From a virus (taxonomy: Duplodnaviria > Heunggongvirae > Uroviricota > Caudoviricetes): DNA of 20,040 nucleotides. The position numbers and the translations under genes were made by a program. Within the stretch, counting starts at the first letter, position 1; every line of letters begins with the position of its first letter. Positions 8,540 through 20,040 of the stretch are shown here, in pieces. The stretch lies in the IMG/VR virus record IMGVR_UViG_2667527582_000006, one strand, 5' to 3'. The notes beneath the pieces were generated by a model. The model saw only the letters and a program-made list of their open reading frames with translations, was not told where the DNA came from and made no database searches.

Positions 8540-8962
8540 GTGGCAAAAGTTTTTACACAAGAAGAGCGAGAAAAAATTAAAGGGCAGGTTGTTGAACTCG
8601 TACGCCAGAGTGGGCGTGAGACGTTACGGCAACTGGAAGTCAAGACAGGTGCGACAAGATATCTGATGAGCGTTCTCGCAAGAGAGCTGGTTGCCAGCGG
8701 CGATGTATACAACTCCGGCTACGGGTTATTCCCCTCTGAACAGGCGCGTAAGGACTGGCAAAACGCCCGCAAAAAACTCTCGAGGGCAAAGGTGAAGAAA
8801 CCTGCTGTGGTTGATCCGGACCTTATCTGGTCATCACCTGACGGAGAAATACGTCGCTACGACAGTCGCCTAAACATAATCTGTCGCGAGTGCCGGAAGA
8901 GTGAAGCTATGCAGCGTGTACTGGCTTTCTATCAGGGTAATTTTCAGGAGGCGGTACTGTGA
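8540..8962 (+). CDS. Hypothetical protein (140 aa), replication-module position
   Basis: GTG start with AGGAGG 4 nt upstream; basic, possibly DNA-binding; no recognised motif. Confidence 0.5.
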   Translation: MAKVFTQEEREKIKGQVVELVRQSGRETLRQLEVKTGATRYLMSVLARELVASGDVYNSGYGLFPSEQARKDWQNARKKLSRAKVKKPAVVDPDLIWSSPDGEIRRYDSRLNIICRECRKSEAMQRVLAFYQGNFQEAVL

Positions 8963-9019
8963 GTGAAATTAGCTATCAGGCTTCAATTACCGCTGGCATT
9001 CGCATCAAAGGAGAGGAGC

Positions 9020-12459: not shown

Positions 12460-12469
12460 NNNNNNNNNN
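12460..12469. other. Assembly gap (10 N)
   Basis: Run of n characters in the sequence. Confidence 0.97.
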
Positions 12470-12481
12470 AATTCATATCAA

Positions 12482-12506
12482 CGGACCTCCACGGAGGTCC
12501 GTTTTT
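12482..12506 (+). terminator. Rho-independent terminator-like hairpin just right of the gap
   Basis: CGGACCTCC / GGAGGTCCG perfect inverted repeat followed by TTTTT. Confidence 0.6.
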
Positions 12507-12665
12507 GCATTCTAAGCCCGCCAAAACCAACATTCCTACAATCCCTTAACTCCACCCAACTCAATCAACTTCAACCCGCATCAAGTCCCTTGCGAGGGTA
12601 CAACTGAGGGTATAGTCTGATTCGATAAAATTTATACCCCTTTTTACTATCAGGAGATACCGCCA

Positions 12666-13928
12666 ATGGCGCTCACTGACGCTAAAATCCGTGCCGCTAA
12701 ACCGGATGAAAAACCTTATAAACTTGCCGACAGCGGCAACATGTTCTTGCTCGTTCACCCTAACGGCTCTCGCTACTGGCGGCTCCGCTATCGGTTTCTG
12801 GGCAAAGAGAAAACGCTCGCTCTGGGGGTCTATCCTGAAGTCTCGTTATCAGAAGCAAGGGAAAAACGCGATACGGCGAGAAAGCTGATAGCTGAGGGAA
12901 CTGACCCATGCGAACAGAAAAGGATCAAAAAGTCGGTACCCGAAACAGCTCAGACATTTGAAGGCATCGCAAGACAGTGGCATAAGAGCAACAAAAAATG
13001 GTCAGCCTCACACAATGAGAGGATACTGAAAAGCCTCGAAACTCATGTTTTCCCCTTTATTGGTTCACGTGACATTACCACCCTCAGGACTCCCGATTTA
13101 CTTGTTCCCGTTAAAGCAGCCGAAGCAAAGGAGATATATGAAATCGCAGCGCGCCTTCAGCAGCGTATCACTGCAATCATGCGCTATGCTGCCCAGTCAG
13201 GCATTATCACCTATAACCCTGCCTTGGATATGGCTGGCGCGTTAACCACAGTGAAACGCCAGCACCGCCCTGCCCTCGCCTTAAATCGCATTTCAGAGCT
13301 TCTTGAACGACTGGATGCCTACAGAGGACAACCTCTCACCCGGCAGGCAACTAAACTCACCCTGCTTATCTTCATCCGTTCCAGCGAACTACGCTTTGCC
13401 AGGTGGTCTGAGATCGACTTCAAGAAAGCCATGTGGACCATTCCTCCTGAGCGGAAACCTATTGAAGGGGTCAAGTATTCCCATCGTGGCTCAAAAATGC
13501 GAACAGAGCATCTTGTGCCACTATCTACTCAGGCGGTGAATATACTGAAGCAGATCCACACTATCAGCGGAGAACATGAACTGATTTTCACCGGCGATCA
13601 CAATCCATGGAAACCCATGAGTGAGAACACTGTAAATAACGCACTGCGTCTGATGGGCTATGATACAAAGGTCGATGTCTGTGGTCACGGCTTCCGGGCA
13701 ATGGCCTGTAGTTCGTTGATTGAGTCAGGTCTTTGGTCCAGAGATGCGGTAGAACGGCAGATGAGCCATATGGAACGCAATTCGGTGAGGGCGGCGTATA
13801 TTCATAAAGCGGAACATCTGGATGAGCGCAAGCTGATGTTGCAGTGGTGGGCTGATTTTCTGGATGCCAATCGGGAAAGGGGAATTACGCCGTTTGACTA
13901 TGCGAAGATCAACCGGGGTAATATGTAG
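12666..13928 (+). CDS. P4-type (CP4-like) tyrosine integrase
   Basis: 420 aa; N-terminal MALTDAKIRAAKPDEKPYKLADSGNMFLLVHPNGSRYWRLRYRF arm-binding signature; C-terminal HGFRAM...RAAY catalytic motifs; AGGAGA SD. Confidence 0.85.
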   Translation: MALTDAKIRAAKPDEKPYKLADSGNMFLLVHPNGSRYWRLRYRFLGKEKTLALGVYPEVSLSEAREKRDTARKLIAEGTDPCEQKRIKKSVPETAQTFEGIARQWHKSNKKWSASHNERILKSLETHVFPFIGSRDITTLRTPDLLVPVKAAEAKEIYEIAARLQQRITAIMRYAAQSGIITYNPALDMAGALTTVKRQHRPALALNRISELLERLDAYRGQPLTRQATKLTLLIFIRSSELRFARWSEIDFKKAMWTIPPERKPIEGVKYSHRGSKMRTEHLVPLSTQAVNILKQIHTISGEHELIFTGDHNPWKPMSENTVNNALRLMGYDTKVDVCGHGFRAMACSSLIESGLWSRDAVERQMSHMERNSVRAAYIHKAEHLDERKLMLQWWADFLDANRERGITPFDYAKINRGNM

Positions 13929-13946
13929 CATATGTGTTTAAATATA

Positions 13947-13988
13947 TTAGCTCAGATTTGATCTGACACAGCTCTGGCACAGAGCTAA
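13947..13988. repeat. Nested palindromic element downstream of the integrase
   Basis: TTAGCTC...GAGCTAA outer arms enclosing TCAGAT-ttg-ATCTGA and AGCTCTG-gca-CAGAGCT. Confidence 0.4.
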
Positions 13989-14095
13989 ACCTAATCTGCA
14001 GGCAGCTCTGTTCCATAGGCGGAAGTTTATCTTTGTAGCCTAGATGCCAGTTAGGAAGAAAATAGAGACAGGAAAGATGATGACTAAATCAGTCT

Positions 14096-14118
14096 CCCAC
14101 CCGCACTGTGCGGGTGGG
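14096..14118. repeat. GC-rich hairpin (9-bp stem CCCACCCGC / GCGGGTGGG), possible terminator in the convergent intergenic region
   Basis: Perfect inverted repeat with 5-nt loop; lies between the convergent integrase and MTase genes. Confidence 0.35.
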
Positions 14119-14458
14119 ATATGTCTTTCCGAGAGAATACCGGCGGCAGCGAGCATCGTTAATTTTAGCTACAAAAGCTGTCCGGAGATGGCGGGTCAAG
14201 ATCAGTCGGAAGATCTCTAAAAGTGGATGGGCCGTTTTGCTGGGATTCTTAGATTGGCAAAAAAGTGGTGAAGCCATCAGATAGGAAGTGGATGGCGCAG
14301 TATTCAGTCTAACACTGAGGAATATTGTGATAATGAAAAGGCTACATATGTAGTGATGTGATTTACTCCCATAGCAAACGCAAACTGTGGCAGTATTACA
14401 TTGGCTGCTTCAGGAAAGGGGGCATCACATCACGACATTTTCTTCCACTGCAGGGTCA

Positions 14459-15775
14459 TTAGCCTGCTGTTCGCTCCAGACCCTGGTTCTTACCAGCCAG
14501 TATTTCGGCTTTTTTCATAGTTTCGACCAACTGTTCCGAGACAGCACGGATGACATTCATGCAGACAGAGTTGCCAAATTGCTTGTAGATCTGGCCCTGT
14601 GAAACAGCATCGACGATGTAGTCGTCAGGGAATCCCTGTAGACGTGCACATTCGCGCGGAGTTAGCTTGCGTGGGTTCCTACCCAAATGTGACTGGTCAA
14701 TCAGGATTTCGGAGCCGTCCTTGTAATAACGTGCACTGATGGTATTAGTGTATTCGCTGTCCTTGTTGAAAAGAGAATAGCCGAAACCGTTACCTTTCTT
14801 TTCGTGTTCCAGTTTCCGTTTCTGGTGGCCTATCCACAGTCTATCCGAGATGGTATATCTGTCTTGTGATAGAGGCAGACGATCGAGGTCTTCCAGAATG
14901 TCACCAACACGGGTCGGAGTCATAGGAGGTACCGGCCATCTGAATACACTGTCGAAATCCACGCCCCTATAATAGTCACGGTCAAAACCAACGATGAAAA
15001 TACGTTCACGGTTCTGGGGGGCACCGAAGTCACCTGCACGCAGTACACGGTAATCAACCCAGTAATTGAGTTTTTCGGACAGAGCATTGCGGGCATCCTC
15101 ACTAATCGGGATATCGTCCGGAACGGAATGGGTTCCATTGCCCCGCAGGATATCGAGAATGGTTTTCAGGGTACGACCCTTATCATGTCCCTGCAGTTGC
15201 TTGACATTTTCCAACATGAATGCCTTTGGACGCTTGGCTGTCATTATCCGCTGAATTTCGAAGAACATGGTTCCACGGGTATCGCTGAAACCTTTTTTCA
15301 AACCGGCCTGTGAAAAAGCCTGGCATGGAAATCCGCCAAGCAGTACATCGTGATCAGGAATGTCGGATGCCGGAATTCTAGTGATGTCACCTTGGGGCAT
15401 TTCGCCGAAATTCGTTAGATAGGTCTTCTGGGAGAACTTGTCCCATTCGGATGAGAATACACAGTGCCCTCCCTGCTGCTGATAAGGAAGACGAATACCT
15501 CCGATACCAGCAAACAGATCGATGAAGGTGAAATTGCATTCATTTTCAGGCTTCTGGCGGAAAGGTGCGTTTTCCAGATATTCAGTCATCTTCTTTTCCA
15601 CATCGAGAATGGCCTGCCATTTGGCGGAAGACGGTTCATGTTCCTCTTCTTCCCATCCTCGGACTGTACGTTCTCCGGTGGCACCGAGTCCGAGAAGATT
15701 GGCAAATTCGGTGCGACCTATGCCTAATTTTTTTCTCATATTTTTGATATATTGGAATTTATTCTTACTGTCCAT
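14459..15775 (-). CDS. DNA (cytosine-5)-methyltransferase, Dcm/EcoRII/SsoII family, with N-terminal HTH regulatory extension
   Basis: Motif I FIDLFAGIGG, motif IV GGFPCQAFS, ENV, QNRERIFIVG, TISARYYKDGSEILID, TPRECARLQGFPDDY; N-terminal GIGRTEFANLLGLGATGERTVRGWEEEE HTH-like segment. Confidence 0.9.
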   Translation of the reverse strand: MDSKNKFQYIKNMRKKLGIGRTEFANLLGLGATGERTVRGWEEEEHEPSSAKWQAILDVEKKMTEYLENAPFRQKPENECNFTFIDLFAGIGGIRLPYQQQGGHCVFSSEWDKFSQKTYLTNFGEMPQGDITRIPASDIPDHDVLLGGFPCQAFSQAGLKKGFSDTRGTMFFEIQRIMTAKRPKAFMLENVKQLQGHDKGRTLKTILDILRGNGTHSVPDDIPISEDARNALSEKLNYWVDYRVLRAGDFGAPQNRERIFIVGFDRDYYRGVDFDSVFRWPVPPMTPTRVGDILEDLDRLPLSQDRYTISDRLWIGHQKRKLEHEKKGNGFGYSLFNKDSEYTNTISARYYKDGSEILIDQSHLGRNPRKLTPRECARLQGFPDDYIVDAVSQGQIYKQFGNSVCMNVIRAVSEQLVETMKKAEILAGKNQGLERTAG

Positions 15776-15887
15776 CCCATGCTCACCTTATCCGGTTTTA
15801 TTCCCGGCGATAGTATCACTGTACGGATGATCAATCAATGAGGGGGTCTCATGTCTATCGACATTTCTGGGCATAGTCCGAATCTTT

Positions 15888-17162
15888 TCAGACTGTAAAA
15901 ATTTCGCGGGTCAGTTCTACCAGCTTTTCTCCTGTTGAATACAGCCGAAGTAGTTCTAGGGGATCCTGGTAATGGCAATGAATCGGCGGATATTCGGACA
16001 GACAGTCAGCTTCTGTAACCAGAACCTTTCCCCTTTCCGCAACATGGACAGCCCTGAGTGGCTTTTCTGTTCCAGGAAAAATGAAATGGTTTGTGATGTG
16101 GGTACCGACCGGCACTAGGTAAGAAAGCGCCTTCTGGTAGAAAAACTGTTTTACCAGATCCGGCCAACCAGGAGCACTATCCGGTGTCTTCGCATCATAG
16201 TATTTGGCATCTATGATCGCGACGTGCGTTTTTTCTGCATTGTGGAGAACCGTATCCGTTCTCTGGCTCTTGTTGGCAACGGGAACAAACCTGTCACTGC
16301 CGGCCCGATACACGGGAATAGGCAATTTATTGTTAACTCGGTATTTACCCACCAAGCATTCATCCAGCATGGCTTCCCACAGACTGTGAAACTTCCTGAC
16401 ACCGATAAGAACCCCGCCATTCCGCATTCCTCTCCCTGTTTCAAGATACATGATCAGTCTCCGCAAAAGGAAAATATCCCTTTCGGAATAGCTGAACTGC
16501 AGTTCTCTTCTTAGGTGTACAACCCATGAGAAAACATTTCCCTCAGGACGCGGAACATTCTGCAGTCGTTCAGGAGTGCCCTGACTGCCTGTCCAGAGCA
16601 TTCCGTATACCGGATAGAGCTCCCTCATTACAGAGGCATGAATCTTTGCTGTCTCGCTATCGGTGAGGTAGCGCGAACGTGTGGTTACAGGATCGATATA
16701 TACAGGCCCAGATGGGCTAGTATAGGCAGTCCCTCGGGCAATTGTCTCCGGCCATACAACTTTTCCGGAGTTGGTTGTATCGACTCTAATCCGGCGGACA
16801 TAGAGACCATTCGTCTGATAGTCGTCAATCAGTGCAGTTGCCAACGACAGGGATTCACCACCGATAAGTCCGGTTCCTGCATCCCCATCAAAAACACCGG
16901 TGTCTCTATCTCGGTAGAATTTCAGGAGTGAGCGGAGCAGATAATGTGCTGAAAGAGCCTGCGATTCACGAGAAGAACTGTTATTTCGTGGCAGAAATAC
17001 AGCCAGACCTCCACTGAAAGACATGACTCCACAGAAATGGATTTTCTGCATGTCGGGGGCCAGCAGCCCCCTGTTTCTCAGCTCATCGAGCACGGTCGCA
17101 GGAATACTGCGATCGGTGACAGGTGTCCTGTCTGAAAGATACAGAATATCAGCTGGCAACAT
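15888..17162 (-). CDS. McrC-like PD-(D/E)xK nuclease subunit
   Basis: 424 aa; C-terminal HVAIIDAKYY matching the (D/E)xK catalytic core; start overlaps the upstream AAA+ gene by 14 nt. Confidence 0.7.
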   Translation of the reverse strand: MLPADILYLSDRTPVTDRSIPATVLDELRNRGLLAPDMQKIHFCGVMSFSGGLAVFLPRNNSSSRESQALSAHYLLRSLLKFYRDRDTGVFDGDAGTGLIGGESLSLATALIDDYQTNGLYVRRIRVDTTNSGKVVWPETIARGTAYTSPSGPVYIDPVTTRSRYLTDSETAKIHASVMRELYPVYGMLWTGSQGTPERLQNVPRPEGNVFSWVVHLRRELQFSYSERDIFLLRRLIMYLETGRGMRNGGVLIGVRKFHSLWEAMLDECLVGKYRVNNKLPIPVYRAGSDRFVPVANKSQRTDTVLHNAEKTHVAIIDAKYYDAKTPDSAPGWPDLVKQFFYQKALSYLVPVGTHITNHFIFPGTEKPLRAVHVAERGKVLVTEADCLSEYPPIHCHYQDPLELLRLYSTGEKLVELTREIFTV

Positions 17163-19089
17163 CTTGCGGATCCCTGTTCATGTCAACAGGAGTGCCCACC
17201 CCTTCAAGTCTGTTCTCTACGGCAGTGGAGAAAACAGCCATGTCATTGCGAAATGCTGCAGATAGGTTGCCGAACGTTCTGAAGGTAGACGCAAATATTT
17301 TCTGGTGTCCGACATGTCTCAGCACATCATCCCACAAATAGATGAACAGTTTTCCGCCAAGGGCAGCTTTCGCTGCTTCCCTATTTTCCAGTTCTTTAGA
17401 ATCTAGGAAAAACGGGCCGATCAGACGATCCTCTGCTATTTCACATTCGACAAGGGTGTCATTAATAATTTGAGCAAAATCGCGCCAGAGTACCGAATAT
17501 TTTCCTGAATTGGTGGTGAAAACGATTTCGGTTTGTGGGATCTCCGGTTTTGATAAATCGATTGGTAGATATTCGAAATTCCAGCGCCGTTTGAATGCAG
17601 TATCCAGCGGCATAACTGCCTGATCACTGCTGTTCATGGTAGCCAGTAGAGACATATTGGACGGGATCCGTAAGCTATCGACAGGAGTACATCCCATAGT
17701 ACCTAGTTCCGTATTTATATACTCGATCATATCCGGATCAGTGGCATTGATGCTGTAGGTACTCGTTCCATCAGGCTCCCTGTCTAGAAGCTGGAAAAGC
17801 TCGCCGAAGACAGCTGCAGCAGAAGCACGGTTGATTTCTTCGATAATGAGACAGACCTTTCTGTCTGGACGAGCAATGGCCAGTATGAGTGCGCAGGTAA
17901 AGGGGCCTGGTCTGAAACTGTAGGTTATGCTGCTTTCTCCCTGTTCATTCTTTTCCATTTTAGGCTTCAGGGCACCGACAAAATCGTTATGCTGAGTATC
18001 AGGATGGAAAACTGTGACAATCTTTTCTGCACCGTCACTCATTTCACCATGGACCCTGTAGCTTTTTCCCGTACCGGGTGCCCCATAGAAGATTCTGTTC
18101 GTTCCACCGGTCACTCTAGGTCCGGATACGGAGGCTCTGGTCGATGACTCGAAAAAGAACTTGCCCTCTCTGTTCCGGATACTCATCCCCAGCCATAAAC
18201 CGGAAACCAGAACCGATATTTTTTCAAGTGAATCGGGAGTATCCAAGAGACCCTTTCTGATGAAAATATATTTCTCCAGCGGAACAGAAAAATGGACGGG
18301 ATTCTGGACATACAGCGCATTGCCGGGTTCCCTGGATGGGCGGAGAAGAAATGCCCTGTCTATATCATTCCATGAAACAAATTCGGCATCGGGGTCAGTC
18401 CCCAGTAAAGGCTCAAACTGACCGGACCAGCCAATGGTTGTCATTATTCTGAACAGCAGTTCATCCCCATCAGGAACACTGAACATATAAGGAAGACTGG
18501 GCATATATCTCCTTTGAAGGTAATCATATGTTTCTTGAGAACGCACCAGATCAAGAATCAGGGTACCGAGTGTTTCCGAGCTTACATTCGGGACCGGCAA
18601 TGATGCCAGCAAGACCGATTTGACAAAATCATCGGATTGCCTATAACTCTTTTTCCCAGTTTTTGAGCTCGTGTTTATTAGATTTTTTGCCTCAAGTCTT
18701 GTTCTGGGATCTTTGAAAGCCCAGAAAAAGTTACTGCGGCTGTAGATGTCCAGCGAAACGAGCGCCTGCTCGTTTGACGTTCCGCTTTCGATCATTGCTT
18801 CGAATTCTGCCGGAAACATATTTTTTTTGATTTCTTCGAATACAGAGATGTAGTTGTCCAGTAGTCTTACAAATGGCCCAATCTTTAGCATATACATCAG
18901 ATACTGGCATGGTATATAACAGTGATACCCGCTTCCAGTTTTCATCCGTGCTGTATGGTCCAGCAATGTCAGTCCGGTTGTTGATAGAACCGTTCTTGTT
19001 TCATCATCGAATCCGATCTCATCGAATTGCCATGCCGATTCAGGTTCATTTTTGAACCAGTTCATCACCATATCCAGTTCTGAAAGCAT
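17149..19089 (-). CDS. McrB-like AAA+ (AAA_5) NTPase with about 330-aa uncharacterised N-terminal domain
   Basis: Walker A GAPGTGKS; Walker B/McrB signature LIIEEINRASAAAVFGELFQLLDR; NxxD-like MNSSD; N-terminal 330 aa without recognisable motif. Confidence 0.75.
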   Translation of the reverse strand: MLSELDMVMNWFKNEPESAWQFDEIGFDDETRTVLSTTGLTLLDHTARMKTGSGYHCYIPCQYLMYMLKIGPFVRLLDNYISVFEEIKKNMFPAEFEAMIESGTSNEQALVSLDIYSRSNFFWAFKDPRTRLEAKNLINTSSKTGKKSYRQSDDFVKSVLLASLPVPNVSSETLGTLILDLVRSQETYDYLQRRYMPSLPYMFSVPDGDELLFRIMTTIGWSGQFEPLLGTDPDAEFVSWNDIDRAFLLRPSREPGNALYVQNPVHFSVPLEKYIFIRKGLLDTPDSLEKISVLVSGLWLGMSIRNREGKFFFESSTRASVSGPRVTGGTNRIFYGAPGTGKSYRVHGEMSDGAEKIVTVFHPDTQHNDFVGALKPKMEKNEQGESSITYSFRPGPFTCALILAIARPDRKVCLIIEEINRASAAAVFGELFQLLDREPDGTSTYSINATDPDMIEYINTELGTMGCTPVDSLRIPSNMSLLATMNSSDQAVMPLDTAFKRRWNFEYLPIDLSKPEIPQTEIVFTTNSGKYSVLWRDFAQIINDTLVECEIAEDRLIGPFFLDSKELENREAAKAALGGKLFIYLWDDVLRHVGHQKIFASTFRTFGNLSAAFRNDMAVFSTAVENRLEGVGTPVDMNRDPQDVAS

Positions 19090-19116
19090 ACTTGTCCCGT
19101 CCTTGCATGAGAAAAA

Positions 19117-20040
19117 TTAGTCATACTTGATCCAGAGATTTCTGGATATTGTCTGTCGCATGTTTTCAATAAATTTCTTGTTCTGGTCCGAAAACTGAGA
19201 GTTTTCATACTGCCCCATAAAAAACAGCAATTCGGCCAGTGCACAGCCCTGGTCTTTCGCCTGATTTTTCATCACGGGATGTTCAGTATTGATGGTAATG
19301 AAATGATCGTCCCCGTAACCAGGTTCCCACAATGAACCGTCGGCTGTTTTACCGAAACGAATATCGATGTCGTCAGGAGCAGTCATCATTACCCTAAATC
19401 TAGGCAGATTGCCGCTTTTTCCAGAAAACAGGAGCCTAAATTCGAGTAGGGCATTGAATATGATAGCCAAGGCATCACTGAAACCTGAACGGTAAATATT
19501 ATAACGGTCGGCAATGATATTACCGAACATGTCAGTATTGTCCTGCCCGATGGTGTCACATCCCTGAATGTTGTTCACCAGATCCTTTACCGGACTCGGC
19601 ATGAATAGACGGGCATACTTTTTCCCTTGGTGAGCAAGCGATTTTGCGATCCTATCACCGGAAAACCTGAACTCTGAAAGGCCCAGAAGCTCCGCGATTT
19701 CATATATCATACGGACAATTCTGCAATTTTCAGGCAGATGTTCATCCACCCACGTGGACAGTGCTGGTATTTCCGCTTTAAGCTTGTCGGTTGGAAGATT
19801 TGTCACTTCCAGCCCGAAGGTACTCTCGAATGACTCTTTTTCGCTGAAAACGGCAGCGCTTGCTGCTACCTGATAAACAAAATCTGCAATTATCAGATCT
19901 GATTCATCGAATATTCGATTGAACAGGTCAATCGGCAACGGAATCCTGTTCTGCCAGAAAATCAGTCCATCTACCCTGTAACTGTGGTTTTTGTCGTAAA
20001 GGTAACGTTTGAAATCGGCCAGATCGTATTCATAATTCAT
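19117..20040 (-). CDS. Hypothetical protein (307 aa), first gene of the McrBC-like/MTase cluster
   Basis: ORF begins with ATG exactly at the window edge and ends 27 nt upstream of the McrB-like start; no motif recognised. Confidence 0.5.
   Translation of the reverse strand: MNYEYDLADFKRYLYDKNHSYRVDGLIFWQNRIPLPIDLFNRIFDESDLIIADFVYQVAASAAVFSEKESFESTFGLEVTNLPTDKLKAEIPALSTWVDEHLPENCRIVRMIYEIAELLGLSEFRFSGDRIAKSLAHQGKKYARLFMPSPVKDLVNNIQGCDTIGQDNTDMFGNIIADRYNIYRSGFSDALAIIFNALLEFRLLFSGKSGNLPRFRVMMTAPDDIDIRFGKTADGSLWEPGYGDDHFITINTEHPVMKNQAKDQGCALAELLFFMGQYENSQFSDQNKKFIENMRQTISRNLWIKYD

Follow-up and report, generated by a model that had tools for sequence, protein, structure and literature searches.

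The methyltransferase encoded in the window (the whole 20,040-nucleotide stretch of DNA that was analysed) is probably a bifunctional enzyme of the SsoII type, a CCNGG methyltransferase whose N-terminal helix-turn-helix (HTH) domain would repress its own gene through a conserved 21-bp box. A rough probability of 0.7 was assigned to this reading. Restriction-modification systems are known to coordinate the timing of methylation and restriction in three ways, one of which is the bifunctional methyltransferase-repressor; to our knowledge, only the SsoII/Ecl18kI palindrome has been dissected so far. An HTH-methyltransferase with its own control is a known SsoII-type design; new here are the different candidate operator and the McrBC-like nuclease partner. 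The features of the locus are collected in Table 1.

Table 1. Coordinates of the features described in the text, given as positions of the window
Feature	Position	Strand	Details
P4-type tyrosine integrase, island end	12666–13928	+	Arm-DNA-bind_3, Phage_int_M, Phage_integrase
C5 cytosine methyltransferase, SsoII/Ecl18kI-like, predicted CCNGG-specific	14459–15775	-	438 aa, ATG open reading frame, PF00145 E = 1e-94
Target-recognition domain, residues 266–367, signature GNGF-x13-TI-x3-YYK	14675–14980	-	CCNGG-type
Motif IV Pro-Cys-Gln, catalytic Cys151 (nt 15323–15325)	15320–15328	-	direct sequence reading; invariant in alignments A1 and A2
XRE-type helix-turn-helix, residues 1–68	15572–15775	-	helices 4–17, 21–27, 31–42, 50–68; AF2 and Foldseek
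Conserved 21-bp box CCGGGAATAAAACCGGATAAG, candidate operator of the HTH domain	15787–15807	-	PWM, 68 distinct loci
Stretch CCGGATAAG of the 21-bp box	within 15787–15807	-	
Predicted sigma-70 promoter of the methyltransferase gene	15810–15838	-	conserved architecture in relatives
Inverted repeat ATGAG/ggggt/CTCAT of the first-pass annotation	15838–15852	.	abuts -35; no evidence of function
McrC-like nuclease subunit, RE_LlaJI family, 424 aa	15888–17162	-	PF09563 E = 6e-32; PADLOC REase_II match
McrB-like AAA+ subunit, 646 aa	17149–19089	-	PF07728 AAA_5 E = 3e-10; PADLOC REase_II E = 1e-49
307-aa protein, part of the upstream operon	19117–20040	-	no Pfam, NCBIfam or PADLOC match

The open reading frame was 52% identical to M.Ecl18kI, which is virtually identical to M.SsoII, over residues 10–420 with the N-terminal region included, and an annotated protein of Enterobacteriaceae was 100% identical to it. 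The motifs FAGIGG, GFPCQ, ENV, QNRER, RLQGFP, and GNSV were all intact and were invariant across the family alignments, and the C5-methyltransferase core of the SsoII-like enzymes was complete (motifs I, IV PCQ, VI ENV, VIII QxRxR, IX, and X). The first-pass annotation had seen no mutation of the Pro-Cys-Gln cysteine, and Cys151 was indeed in place within GFPCQ. Judged by its sequence, the protein is an intact C5 cytosine methyltransferase.

The target-recognition domain (TRD) was 60% identical to that of M.Ecl18kI, which recognizes CCNGG, but only 34% identical to that of E. coli Dcm, which recognizes CCWGG. The signature G(K/N)GF-x13-T(I/L)-x3-YYK, proposed for TRDs of the CCNGG type (PMC3346939), was present in the window TRD, whereas Dcm has x15. 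The TRD motifs of the window were also found in M.PcaRCI, for which nanopore sequencing demonstrated methylation of CCNGG (PMC8989522). Furthermore, relatives 63–69% identical to the methyltransferase were paired with LlaMI-family (CC^NGG) endonucleases. Because the TRD was closer to that of M.Ecl18kI and carried the CCNGG signature, CCNGG is the likely target. CCWGG or CCNGG had earlier been raised as a conditional target, in overlap with Dcm, and an alignment of the TRD had been suggested as a check; the alignment with M.Ecl18kI and Dcm pointed to the CCNGG type, with which the overlap with Dcm is only partial. Protection by host Dcm would extend only to the half of CCNGG sites that are CCWGG.

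The methyltransferase has an N-terminal extension of ~80 residues ahead of motif I. The AF2 model of residues 1–78 was composed of four helices with a mean pLDDT of 89.6. When the PDB was searched with this model by Foldseek, the top matches were all XRE HTH proteins, with TM values of 0.55–0.67, a probability of ~1, and E-values of 0.1–0.6, which are usual for a 78-residue query. Among the matches listed, almost all were XRE repressors, antitoxins, or restriction-modification controller proteins. The N-terminal region was 39% identical to residues 2–57 of M.Ecl18kI over 56 residues without gaps, its first ~70 residues were homologous to M.SsoII residues 1–71 with an XRE-type HTH, and Pfam HTH_3 gave a sub-threshold match (E = 1e-3, under the gathering score). 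The recognition helix contained an invariant GERTVRGWE, and 21 N-terminal positions were invariant in 40 proteins, each of which was 47–86% identical to the N-terminal region of the window protein. An XRE-like HTH ahead of motif I, as in SsoII-type enzymes, had been proposed on first reading; the homology to M.SsoII and M.Ecl18kI is full-length and includes this domain, and the AF2 and Foldseek results support a DNA-binding fold for the extension. M.Ecl18kI and M.SsoII repress their own promoter through the N-terminal domain (PMC2760811; PMC3978073). However, the isolated M.Ecl18kI HTH domain did not bind the operator in vitro (PMC2760811), so the HTH domain may not suffice alone.

The spacer between the stop codon of the RE_LlaJI-family gene and the ATG of the methyltransferase gene was exactly 112 bp long (15776–15887), as had been noted before, and its description as the gene's own control region was borne out by a conserved predicted promoter and the 21-bp box, which together occupy positions 15787–15838 and had gone unremarked on first reading. 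The promoter was composed of a -35 hexamer TTGATT (15838–15833), a 17-nt spacer, a TG (15818–15817), and a -10 hexamer TACTAT (15815–15810), and was recognized only from its conservation among relatives. In these, the spacer was 17 nt long in 54 of 66 promoters, the -10 hexamer was TG-extended in 50 of 66, and it ended 0–2 nt before the box in 54 of 66. A generic promoter and terminator scan of positions 14300–16100 called no promoter, because the window copy reaches no more than 8/12 plus TG. In locus L005, an IS66 element inserted upstream of window position 15869 lies between the methyltransferase gene and the nuclease operon, which is intact. The 94 bp upstream of the ATG remain attached to the methyltransferase gene, which is consistent with an autonomous promoter there. 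An antisense promoter opposite the methyltransferase start codon, like Pr of Ecl18kI, had a weak match in only ~10 of 29 divergent loci and is a lead only.

The first-pass annotation had also picked out ATGAG-N5-CTCAT in the spacer as a possible operator, which an HTH dimer would bind beside the -35 hexamer. The repeat exists, abuts the -35 hexamer, and is palindromic like the SsoII operator, but its 5-bp arms were at chance level. When perfect arms of at least 5 bp with loops of up to 10 nt were counted, dinucleotide-shuffled 112-mers contained 1.26 such repeats each, with at least one in 64% of shuffles, and the whole window contained a mean of 1.8 per 112 bp. L007, the next relative in which the genes have the same order, lacked the repeat, as did every other relative, although the HTH recognition helix is invariant, and a far stronger conserved element was located 31 bp downstream. 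The role of operator was rejected on the grounds of chance-level arms and missing conservation, and is exceedingly improbable.

This stronger element, the 21-bp box, starts 2 nt past the -10 hexamer and ends 11 nt before the ATG. Its consensus, CCNGGwnwAAAACCGGATAAG, was nearly invariant across 68 distinct upstream regions, and box-bearing loci ranged from Enterobacterales to Psychrobacter, Nitrospina MAGs, and Bacteroidetes MAGs. A position weight matrix (PWM) built from the 68 distinct loci, with a cut-off of 20 bits, gave one match per locus in 1.36 Mb of loci, on the coding strand and always just upstream of the methyltransferase gene. The exact 14-base core of the box occurred once in each of 43 loci and, with up to 3 mismatches allowed, the box was a single match in the window (0.04 expected). 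When viral contigs were scanned for the pattern alone, 18 matches were obtained, and in nine of them a methyltransferase homolog followed within 10–26 nt. The other nine were followed by neither a methyltransferase nor an HTH homolog, and six of these lay in long open frames and so look like chance. Searching the literature for the box sequence gave no relevant result.

The presence of the box followed the recognition helix. The box was present with 61 of 65 proteins that have the canonical GERT[VI]RGWE helix but with only 7 of 18 that do not (Fisher p = 2e-6, ignoring phylogeny), and was absent from the four loci in which the N-terminal domain was missing. Altered helices went with an altered box or none (L036, L045, L061, L055, L056, and L091 from Bacillus), and Ecl18kI, also with an altered helix, has its own palindrome instead. 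Four loci with a canonical helix had deviant boxes, by a 1-nt deletion in L070/71 and by divergence in L062. On this comparison, the box is a candidate operator of the HTH domain. The result with the isolated Ecl18kI domain could also fit an N-terminal domain that is vestigial or serves protein–protein or non-specific DNA contacts, the box then being a host-factor site or a promoter-proximal preference. This is very improbable, given the 21 invariant N-terminal positions and the finding that no gene other than the HTH-methyltransferase occurred in every box-bearing locus, whereas the partner genes varied. In addition, the hosts come from several phyla, which speaks against a host factor common to them.

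For XRE HTH proteins, which bind palindromes as dimers, an asymmetric box is unusual. Its variants agreed cleanly with neither a direct repeat (CNGGA, 11–12-bp period) nor an inverted repeat (CCGG-N8-CCGG). The window box opens with a CCNGG site of 5 nt (CCGGG), and the predicted substrate site of the enzyme was included in four fifths of cases: of 62 distinct boxes, 50 had CCNGG at positions 1–5, and each of the four bases occurred at its centre. Such a site at the expected start of transcription raises the prospect of purely epigenetic, CfrBI-like control, in which methylation of CCNGG alters promoter strength and the HTH acts elsewhere or has another role. Control by a methylation site in the promoter is known for CfrBI (PMC3978073), and M.PcaRCI silences another gene via one promoter CCNGG (PMC8989522). 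However, the remaining 12 of 62 boxes had CAGGG or a similar sequence in place of CCNGG, the most conserved part of the box, AAAACCGGATAAG, is not a CCNGG site, and loci lacking the HTH also lacked the whole box, which makes control by methylation alone unlikely.

Most of the box would be transcribed, and it might act at the RNA level as a 5'-UTR element, through a CCGG-N8-CCGG hairpin and/or a ribosome-binding region that affects translation or mRNA stability. The minimum free energy fold pairs CCGG with CCGG, the pairing is kept by CCTG...CAGG in three loci, and GGATAAG lies 5–17 nt ahead of the start codon. Such a role is nevertheless highly unlikely. In four loci, a second copy in the same orientation lies upstream of the -35 hexamer, outside the methyltransferase mRNA, and many variants, such as CAGG...CAGG and CCGGG...CAGG, break the pairing. 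The 4-bp stem is weak, the whole spacer folded no better than shuffles (z = -0.9), and an Rfam search of the spacer gave no family match. Furthermore, conservation of the box tracks the HTH helix. The 3' part of the box (GGATAAG) is in a possible ribosome-binding position, and part of its conservation could be translational.

In the preferred reading, that of a methyltransferase which represses its own gene, residues ~80–438 would form an active C5 cytosine methyltransferase, most likely methylating CCNGG. This methylation would protect the host from the adjacent LlaJI/McrBC-like complex, which by analogy would cut unmethylated DNA. Residues 1–68 would form the XRE-type HTH that represses the enzyme's own gene. 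The box begins 2 nt past the -10 hexamer and thus would cover the expected transcription start. When enough free enzyme is present, it would bind the box and exclude RNA polymerase, in a negative feedback as shown for M.Ecl18kI. Autorepression of the methyltransferase is likely on these comparative grounds.

A bolder proposal, that both domains of one enzyme molecule read a bipartite operator and that the promoter-box cassette is reused with three unrelated nuclease types, is doubtful when both parts are taken jointly. The catalytic domain may contact CCNGG at box positions 1–5, at the predicted transcription start, and the HTH may contact AAAACCGGATAAG 12 bp away. The nucleases found beside the cassette were of the LlaMI type, a two-gene McrB/LlaJI-like pair, or a five-gene SNF2/HATPase/McrB/LlaJI-like operon. 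If the bipartite reading is true, repression would respond both to whether the promoter is methylated and to how much of the enzyme is titrated by the unmethylated genome. The result would be a built-in sensor of genome protection, unlike the SsoII palindrome, to which two monomers bind.

The methyltransferase gene of the window lies downstream of the nuclease operon on the same strand. The McrB-like AAA+ and RE_LlaJI McrC-like subunits of LlaJI-type systems were both present, encoded by adjacent, overlapping genes, and the NCBIfam equivalog model of McrB matched the 646-aa subunit weakly (31 bits, with the cut-off at 637). The operon also includes SNF2 and HATPase_c_3 genes, which lie past the window end, and it was found in full in L001–L006. 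The island was found in four different chromosomal contexts. The DNA left of ~12460 was E. coli Qin/Rac-like prophage; an E. coli origin of the island was rejected after a megablast of positions 14300–16000 against 5,426 complete E. coli genomes gave no match.

In 48 of 81 loci, McrB/LlaJI-like genes accompanied the methyltransferase gene, with three arrangements seen, and a divergent McrB/LlaJI-like pair lay opposite it in 40 of 81 relatives. No R.Ecl18kI homolog was found in any of the loci, and the window locus lacked the divergent Ecl18kI/SsoII-type endonuclease partner whose expression depends on methyltransferase binding. In the four co-linear loci, no box was found upstream of the SNF2/nuclease operon, where the best PWM scores were negative. 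The earlier suggestion that the methyltransferase controls its partner nuclease did not hold for this layout, and direct nuclease control at the window locus is not supported by the sequence. Given that the gene follows the nuclease operon, which has no box in front of it, the HTH probably tunes methyltransferase expression only, without switching on the nuclease genes.

How an McrBC-like nuclease would discriminate self had likewise been raised as a question on first reading. The window nuclease is of the LlaJI type (PF09563 and AAA_5). In LlaJI and PcaRCI, unmethylated DNA is cut and the methyltransferase protects (PMC12707154; PMC8989522), so self-discrimination would follow ordinary restriction-modification logic and not that of Type IV. 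Type IV McrBC systems target methylated DNA and have no cognate methyltransferase, whereas a methyltransferase was linked in 48 of 81 loci here. Most likely, the McrBC-like genes of this mobile island are not a Type IV system but supply the restriction activity of a CCNGG restriction-modification system.

The clade of the window locus included >60 species among the loci fetched. It keeps the SsoII-type HTH, yet the box at the predicted start site of the promoter is a different one, asymmetric and very well conserved. The 21-bp box offers a precise target for binding and reporter experiments. The loci also form a natural series of layouts, divergent, divergent with two boxes, and co-linear as in the window, with which the generality of Ecl18kI-like promoter competition over nuclease genes can be tested.

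Among known systems, M.SsoII, M.Ecl18kI, and M.Kpn2kI, bifunctional CCNGG enzymes of small enterobacterial plasmids, share with the window enzyme full-length homology (52%), the HTH, and the TRD type. M.SsoII and M.Ecl18kI also have an operator at their own promoter just upstream of the coding sequence, for which the box is the candidate in the window. Their divergent layout recurs in most relatives of the window gene, with spacers of 51–117 bp; the Ecl18kI spacer is too short for a separate R promoter (PMC2760811), and likewise in the divergent relatives. However, the SsoII/Ecl18kI operator is a 15-bp palindrome, AGGACAAATTGTCCT, which was present in the R/M spacer of pECL18 and absent in the window, where the box is asymmetric and 21 bp long. 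The pECL18 upstream region scored 11.5 bits with the box PWM, under the 20-bit cut-off. Whereas Ecl18kI has a single-chain partner enzyme and a divergent layout, the window methyltransferase gene is co-directional with and downstream of the genes of a multi-subunit LlaJI/McrBC-like nuclease. The window protein also has a 23-aa insertion (residues ~210–232) and a longer C-terminus than M.Ecl18kI.

The ORF9 and ORF25 methyltransferases of Psychrobacter plasmid pP62BP1 are direct relatives, 64% identical to the window protein (H44; L081–L086 are related Psychrobacter loci). Their HTH_XRE domain and CCNGG-type TRD have already been noted in PMC3346939, which makes no mention of an operator for them and reports that the HTH of M.ScrFIA (Lactococcus) was experimentally shown to serve regulation. 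The same box lies upstream of the pP62BP1 genes as CCGGGAATAAAACAGGATAT. Unlike in the window, the partner is a LlaMI-family type II endonuclease arranged tail to tail.

LlaJI of Lactococcus plasmid pNP40 resembles the window locus in its McrB-like AAA+ and RE_LlaJI McrC-like subunits. Its substrate is unmodified DNA, and C5 methyltransferases belong to the system (PMC12707154); the sources consulted describe no HTH fusion for it. LlaJI has two methyltransferases for an asymmetric site, whereas the island has a single methyltransferase gene with a predicted palindromic-type target, and the window operon has three extra genes (SNF2, HATPase_c_3, and the 307-aa protein). PcaRCI of Pectobacterium carotovorum RC5297 likewise combines a CCNGG methyltransferase, sharing TRD motifs with the window enzyme, with a McrBC-like two-subunit nuclease. 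It restricts unmethylated plasmids and phage, and Dcm-type CCWGG methylation protects only partly (PMC8989522). However, P0121, a near-identical protein, starts with 95 aa that do not form an XRE HTH, a separate 119-aa winged-HTH gene overlaps its start, and the PcaRCI-type nuclease subunit is DUF2357/PDDEXK_7 in the order M-RA-RB, in contrast to RE_LlaJI in the window. PcaRCI was rejected as an ortholog because of the missing XRE HTH and the different Pfam family of the nuclease subunit.

M.EcoRII, which is reported to carry a fused repressor domain and to autoregulate (PMC12707154), and Dcm are likewise C5 methyltransferases, and their TRD core (SARYYKDG.EILID) is related to that of the window enzyme. 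The window enzyme does not belong to this group by its TRD (34% identity, x13 and not x15) or its N-terminal region, which was not homologous to that of CCWGG-specific Dcm (19% identity in the alignment), and it scored 252 bits against a cut-off of 710 with the Dcm model NF007772. The controller proteins C.BclI, C.Csp231I, C.Kpn2I, and C.Esp1396I, among the structural matches, share the XRE HTH fold. Unlike the HTH of the window, which is part of the methyltransferase polypeptide and is associated with a single, asymmetric box, controller proteins are separate polypeptides; they bind C-boxes that are duplicated and palindromic, and they activate nuclease genes.

The C5 cytosine methyltransferase of the window retained all of its catalytic motifs, FAGIGG, GFPCQ (Cys151), ENV, QNRER, RLQGFP, and GNSV, and its catalytic half was ~60% identical to M.HhaI. 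A 100% identical protein is recorded in several Enterobacteriaceae. Over residues 10–420, the protein shared 52% identity with M.Ecl18kI of plasmid pECL18, a CCNGG methyltransferase with a regulatory helix-turn-helix (HTH). The N-terminus gave only a sub-threshold Pfam match to HTH_3 (E=1e-3); the first 78 residues alone were aligned without gaps to residues 2–57 of M.Ecl18kI at 39% identity. The regulatory HTH of M.SsoII and M.Ecl18kI, which are virtually identical (PMC2760811), was experimentally mapped to the corresponding N-terminal region (PMC2760811, PMC3978073). Residues 1–78 were modelled confidently by AlphaFold2 (pLDDT 89.6) with four helices (residues 4–17, 21–27, 31–42, and 50–68), and the best structural matches, with TM-scores of 0.55–0.67, were almost all XRE-type HTH proteins, including DdrO, HigA2, HipB, P22 c2, SinR, and the controllers C.BclI, C.Csp231I, and C.Kpn2I. 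With an XRE-type fold modelled and Cys151 intact, the central description in the first-pass annotation, an HTH-fused methyltransferase, stands. A 23-residue insertion relative to M.Ecl18kI and M.HhaI, RGNGTHSVPDDIPISEDARNALS (window 15080–15150, residues ~210–232), was kept across the methyltransferase clade, LlaMI-paired relatives included.

Features of the methyltransferase locus, in window coordinates
Feature	Coordinates	Strand	Remarks
C5 cytosine methyltransferase ORF	14459-15775	-	438 aa; PF00145 E=1e-94, TIGR00675 E=9e-91
Spacer	15776-15887		112 bp, methyltransferase start to stop of preceding ORF
Box CCGGGAATAAAACCGGATAAG	15807-15787	-	ends 11 nt before ATG
Predicted promoter	TTGATT 15838-15833; TG 15818-15817; TACTAT 15815-15810	-	
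RE_LlaJI-family (McrC-like) ORF	15888-17162	-	upstream of methyltransferase
AAA_5/McrB-like ORF	17149-19089	-	overlaps RE_LlaJI ORF
307-aa ORF	19117-20040	-	no known family

The target-recognition domain (TRD), between motifs VIII and IX, was 60% identical to that of M.Ecl18kI (CCNGG), compared with 34% for E. coli Dcm (CCWGG). It contained G(K/N)GF-x13-T(I/L)-x3-YYK, a proposed CCNGG signature derived from 93 REBASE enzymes (PMC3346939), with x15 in Dcm. The same TRD motifs were found in M.PcaRCI of Pectobacterium carotovorum RC5297, which methylates CCNGG according to nanopore sequencing (PMC8989522). Furthermore, LlaMI-family (CC^NGG) endonucleases partnered relatives 63–69% identical to the window methyltransferase (18 loci). 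From the TRD identity, the signature, the motifs common with M.PcaRCI, and these partners, we infer with good support that the target is CCNGG. Between the targets previously suggested, CCWGG or CCNGG, the TRD therefore favors the latter, and the suggested overlap with host Dcm would extend to only half of the sites, those reading CCWGG, in line with the report on PcaRCI (PMC8989522).

The inverted repeat ATGAG-N5-CTCAT, previously proposed as the operator, was confirmed at 15838–15852, but it was at chance level and not conserved, and was rejected in that role. Repeats of its strength were expected 1.26 times per shuffled 112-mer, with at least one in 64% of shuffles, and occurred across the window at a mean of 1.8 per 112 bp. 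In the upstream DNA compared, the repeat was absent from L007, the next relative that shares this gene order, and from the rest of the methyltransferase family. The RNA structure of the 112-bp spacer was not unusual (z = -0.9), and no Rfam match was found in it. A second 5-bp inverted repeat, ATGTC-GATA-GACAT (15851–15864), overlapping the left-arm region of the first, likewise did not exceed chance and lacked conservation.

A striking conserved element, the 21-bp box, was seen when upstream DNA was aligned at the methyltransferase starts of 80 loci, from distinct species, encoding relatives 63–89% identical to the window protein. The weight matrix from 68 distinct sequences read C C N G G w n w A A A A C C G G A T A A G, and information content exceeded 1.2 bits at most positions. 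Across 1.36 Mb of DNA from these loci, scanned on both strands, each locus held a single box, which invariably lay on the coding strand, usually 5–26 nt 5′ of the start codon; four loci departed from this with two tandem copies, and three stray matches elsewhere were weak (14–17 bits). The exact 14-base core occurred once per locus in 43 loci. At a tolerance of up to three mismatches, the window contained just one match, its own box, against 0.04 expected. A pattern-only scan of viral contigs gave 18 matches, nine with a methyltransferase homolog 10–26 nt downstream. For the other nine, no methyltransferase or HTH homolog lay downstream and no TTGAC or TG-extended -10 just upstream; six of them sat within long open frames, so these nine look like chance. 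Elsewhere in L001, a locus with the full island, no further box was found save a weak match, CCGGGAACAAAACCGGAT (L001 14067–14098, 13.9 bits), which lay outside the window inside an unrelated 1531-aa flanking gene and is probably due to chance. No description of the box was found in the searchable literature, a limited library.

A promoter common to the family lay just 5′ of the box. Its -35 started with TTG, mostly as TTGACT or TTGCCT, the spacer was 17 nt in 54 of 66 cases, a TG extension preceded the -10 in 50 of 66, and 0–2 nt separated the -10 from the box in 54 of 66. Since the -10 directly precedes it, the box spans the expected transcription start. The predicted window promoter matched only 8 of 12 consensus hexamer positions and was missed by a generic promoter scan. 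In L005, an IS66-family element (L005 7512–9824, corresponding to window 15869/15870) separated the LlaJI-like gene from the methyltransferase promoter, a naturally occurring split of the methyltransferase gene from the operon upstream; 94 bp 5′ of the ATG stayed attached and all nuclease genes were intact, which is consistent with a self-sufficient methyltransferase promoter within these 94 bp.

The box was coupled to the HTH. The recognition-helix segment GERT[VI]RGWE was invariant in most of the family, and the box accompanied 61 of 65 distinct proteins with this segment versus 7 of 18 without it (Fisher p=2e-6, uncorrected for phylogeny). In three Morganella loci and one Rheinheimera locus, the methyltransferase had lost its N-terminal domain, and none of these four loci had the box. 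Helices GEHTVGEWE, GEQTVSEWE, and GEQTVIAWE were paired with boxes in which CCGG was replaced by CCGC or CTGC. The box was absent with helix GEQTVRKWE (L055) and from a Bacillus plasmid homolog (GDKMLRSWE); L056, with a quite different helix, had another palindrome, CTGTAT-N4-ATACAG, and M.Ecl18kI (GDRTIRRWE) has its own, AGGACAAATTGTCCT. The HTH-methyltransferase was the sole gene common to all box-bearing loci, while partner genes differed. In the two-copy loci (n=4), the second box lay 5′ of the -35 and beyond the methyltransferase transcript, which argues for a DNA-level over an RNA-level role. The Morganella relatives (L073, L078, and L080, ~8824–9000) were 70–72% identical from residue 60, with degraded, stop-containing N-terminal regions and no box; a CCNGG endonuclease of Morganella morganii, MmoSTI, is on record (PMC4731440).

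The window methyltransferase most likely represses itself: the homology and fold, and the conservation, position, and HTH coupling of the box, are observed, and binding, start site, and repression are inferred. The mechanism follows that of the homologous M.Ecl18kI, which when operator-bound shuts RNA polymerase out of its own promoter (PMC2760811). Free methyltransferase would occupy the box, which covers the expected start site, and thereby switch off its own promoter. The box was asymmetric. Of 62 distinct boxes, 50 had CCNGG at positions 1–5, and each of the four bases occurred at the central position. The catalytic domains of M.SsoII are thought to contact operator-flanking DNA (PMC3978073); the box is therefore possibly bipartite, both domains of one molecule reading one box, although 12 of the 62 boxes, mostly with CAGGG, lacked CCNGG. 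Alternatively, the box could be read as a degenerate CCGG-N8-CCGG palindrome or a CNGGA direct repeat. The interest of the locus lies mainly in this sharply defined, testable candidate operator and its CCNGG content.

By gene ARRANGEMENTS (81 distinct loci), the McrB-like/LlaJI-like pair was divergent from the methyltransferase in 40, mostly across 51–117 bp. This is the SsoII/Ecl18kI layout, with a spacer too short for a separate nuclease promoter; that of Ecl18kI sits within the start of the methyltransferase gene (PMC2760811). Four loci had a divergent SNF2-HATPase-307aa-McrB-LlaJI operon and two boxes around the methyltransferase promoter; in these (L029, L032, L033, and L060, ~8884–8990) both boxes had the same orientation, one between the SNF2 start codon and the -35 and the other after the -10. 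Four more, the window included, had a co-linear arrangement in which the methyltransferase gene follows the five-gene operon, and LlaMI-family endonucleases partnered 17 of the remaining loci. No box was found within 260 bp 5′ of the SNF2 gene in the co-linear loci, so direct HTH control of the nuclease genes, also proposed earlier, had no visible route in the window locus and is unsupported in this arrangement; the first-pass annotation was right about the protein and wrong about the operator. On the opposite strand (window 15745–15780, +), a weak promoter-like match (TTGATA, 16 nt, TACTGT) was formed at its -35 by conserved Tyr-Ile-Lys codons, with the -10 opposite the methyltransferase start codon. 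It recalls the Ecl18kI nuclease promoter, whose start is opposite the methyltransferase initiation codon, and similar matches occurred in ~10 of 29 divergent-type relatives.

In contigs with the identical methyltransferase, the island ran SNF2 helicase, HATPase_c_3, 307-aa, McrB-like, LlaJI-like, methyltransferase, and P4-type integrase, ~11 kb in all (window 12460–20040 and beyond; L001 2294–13110). With 100% identical proteins, it occupied four chromosomal contexts (T2SS genes, icd/phoQ, dsbD/cutA, and a prophage), and none of 5,426 complete E. coli genomes contained it. DNA left of ~12460 was E. coli Qin/Rac-like prophage (96% identity), and the window contained no tRNA gene. The three genes preceding the McrB/LlaJI-like pair (window 19117–20040; L001 2294–6659) encoded the SNF2 helicase (best PADLOC matches ZorD/DpdE), an MzaB-like HATPase_c_3 protein, and the family-less 307-aa protein. 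This module accompanied the core of McrB/LlaJI genes and methyltransferase in three different arrangements: co-linear, divergent, or, in L020, downstream. The N-terminal 320 residues of the window McrB-like protein were common to module-linked McrB-like subunits and absent from two-gene systems.

Among known systems, PcaRCI was the closest functional analogue, in which CCNGG methylation guards against an McrBC-like enzyme. It was ruled out as an ortholog: no XRE HTH is fused to its methyltransferase, which is instead preceded by a winged-HTH gene of its own, and its nuclease subunit is DUF2357/PDDEXK_7. A PcaRCI-type locus (L092 5652–11678) encoded a protein, P0121, that matched the published fragment of M.PcaRCI at 97% identity. 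The methyltransferase start there is overlapped by a winged-HTH gene of 119 aa (MarR/HTH_20-like), which goes unmentioned in the PcaRCI paper and may be a separate regulator. By their domains, PF09563 and AAA_5, the nuclease genes of the window match the LlaJI type, which has two methyltransferases to the one found here. The Psychrobacter plasmid pP62BP1 encodes direct relatives of the window methyltransferase in which a CCNGG-type TRD and an HTH_XRE domain had already been recognized (PMC3346939); the fusion itself is therefore not new. The window protein agreed in sequence and fold with the SsoII-like bifunctional methyltransferases, whereas its locus differed from theirs in operator, endonuclease partner, and gene order.
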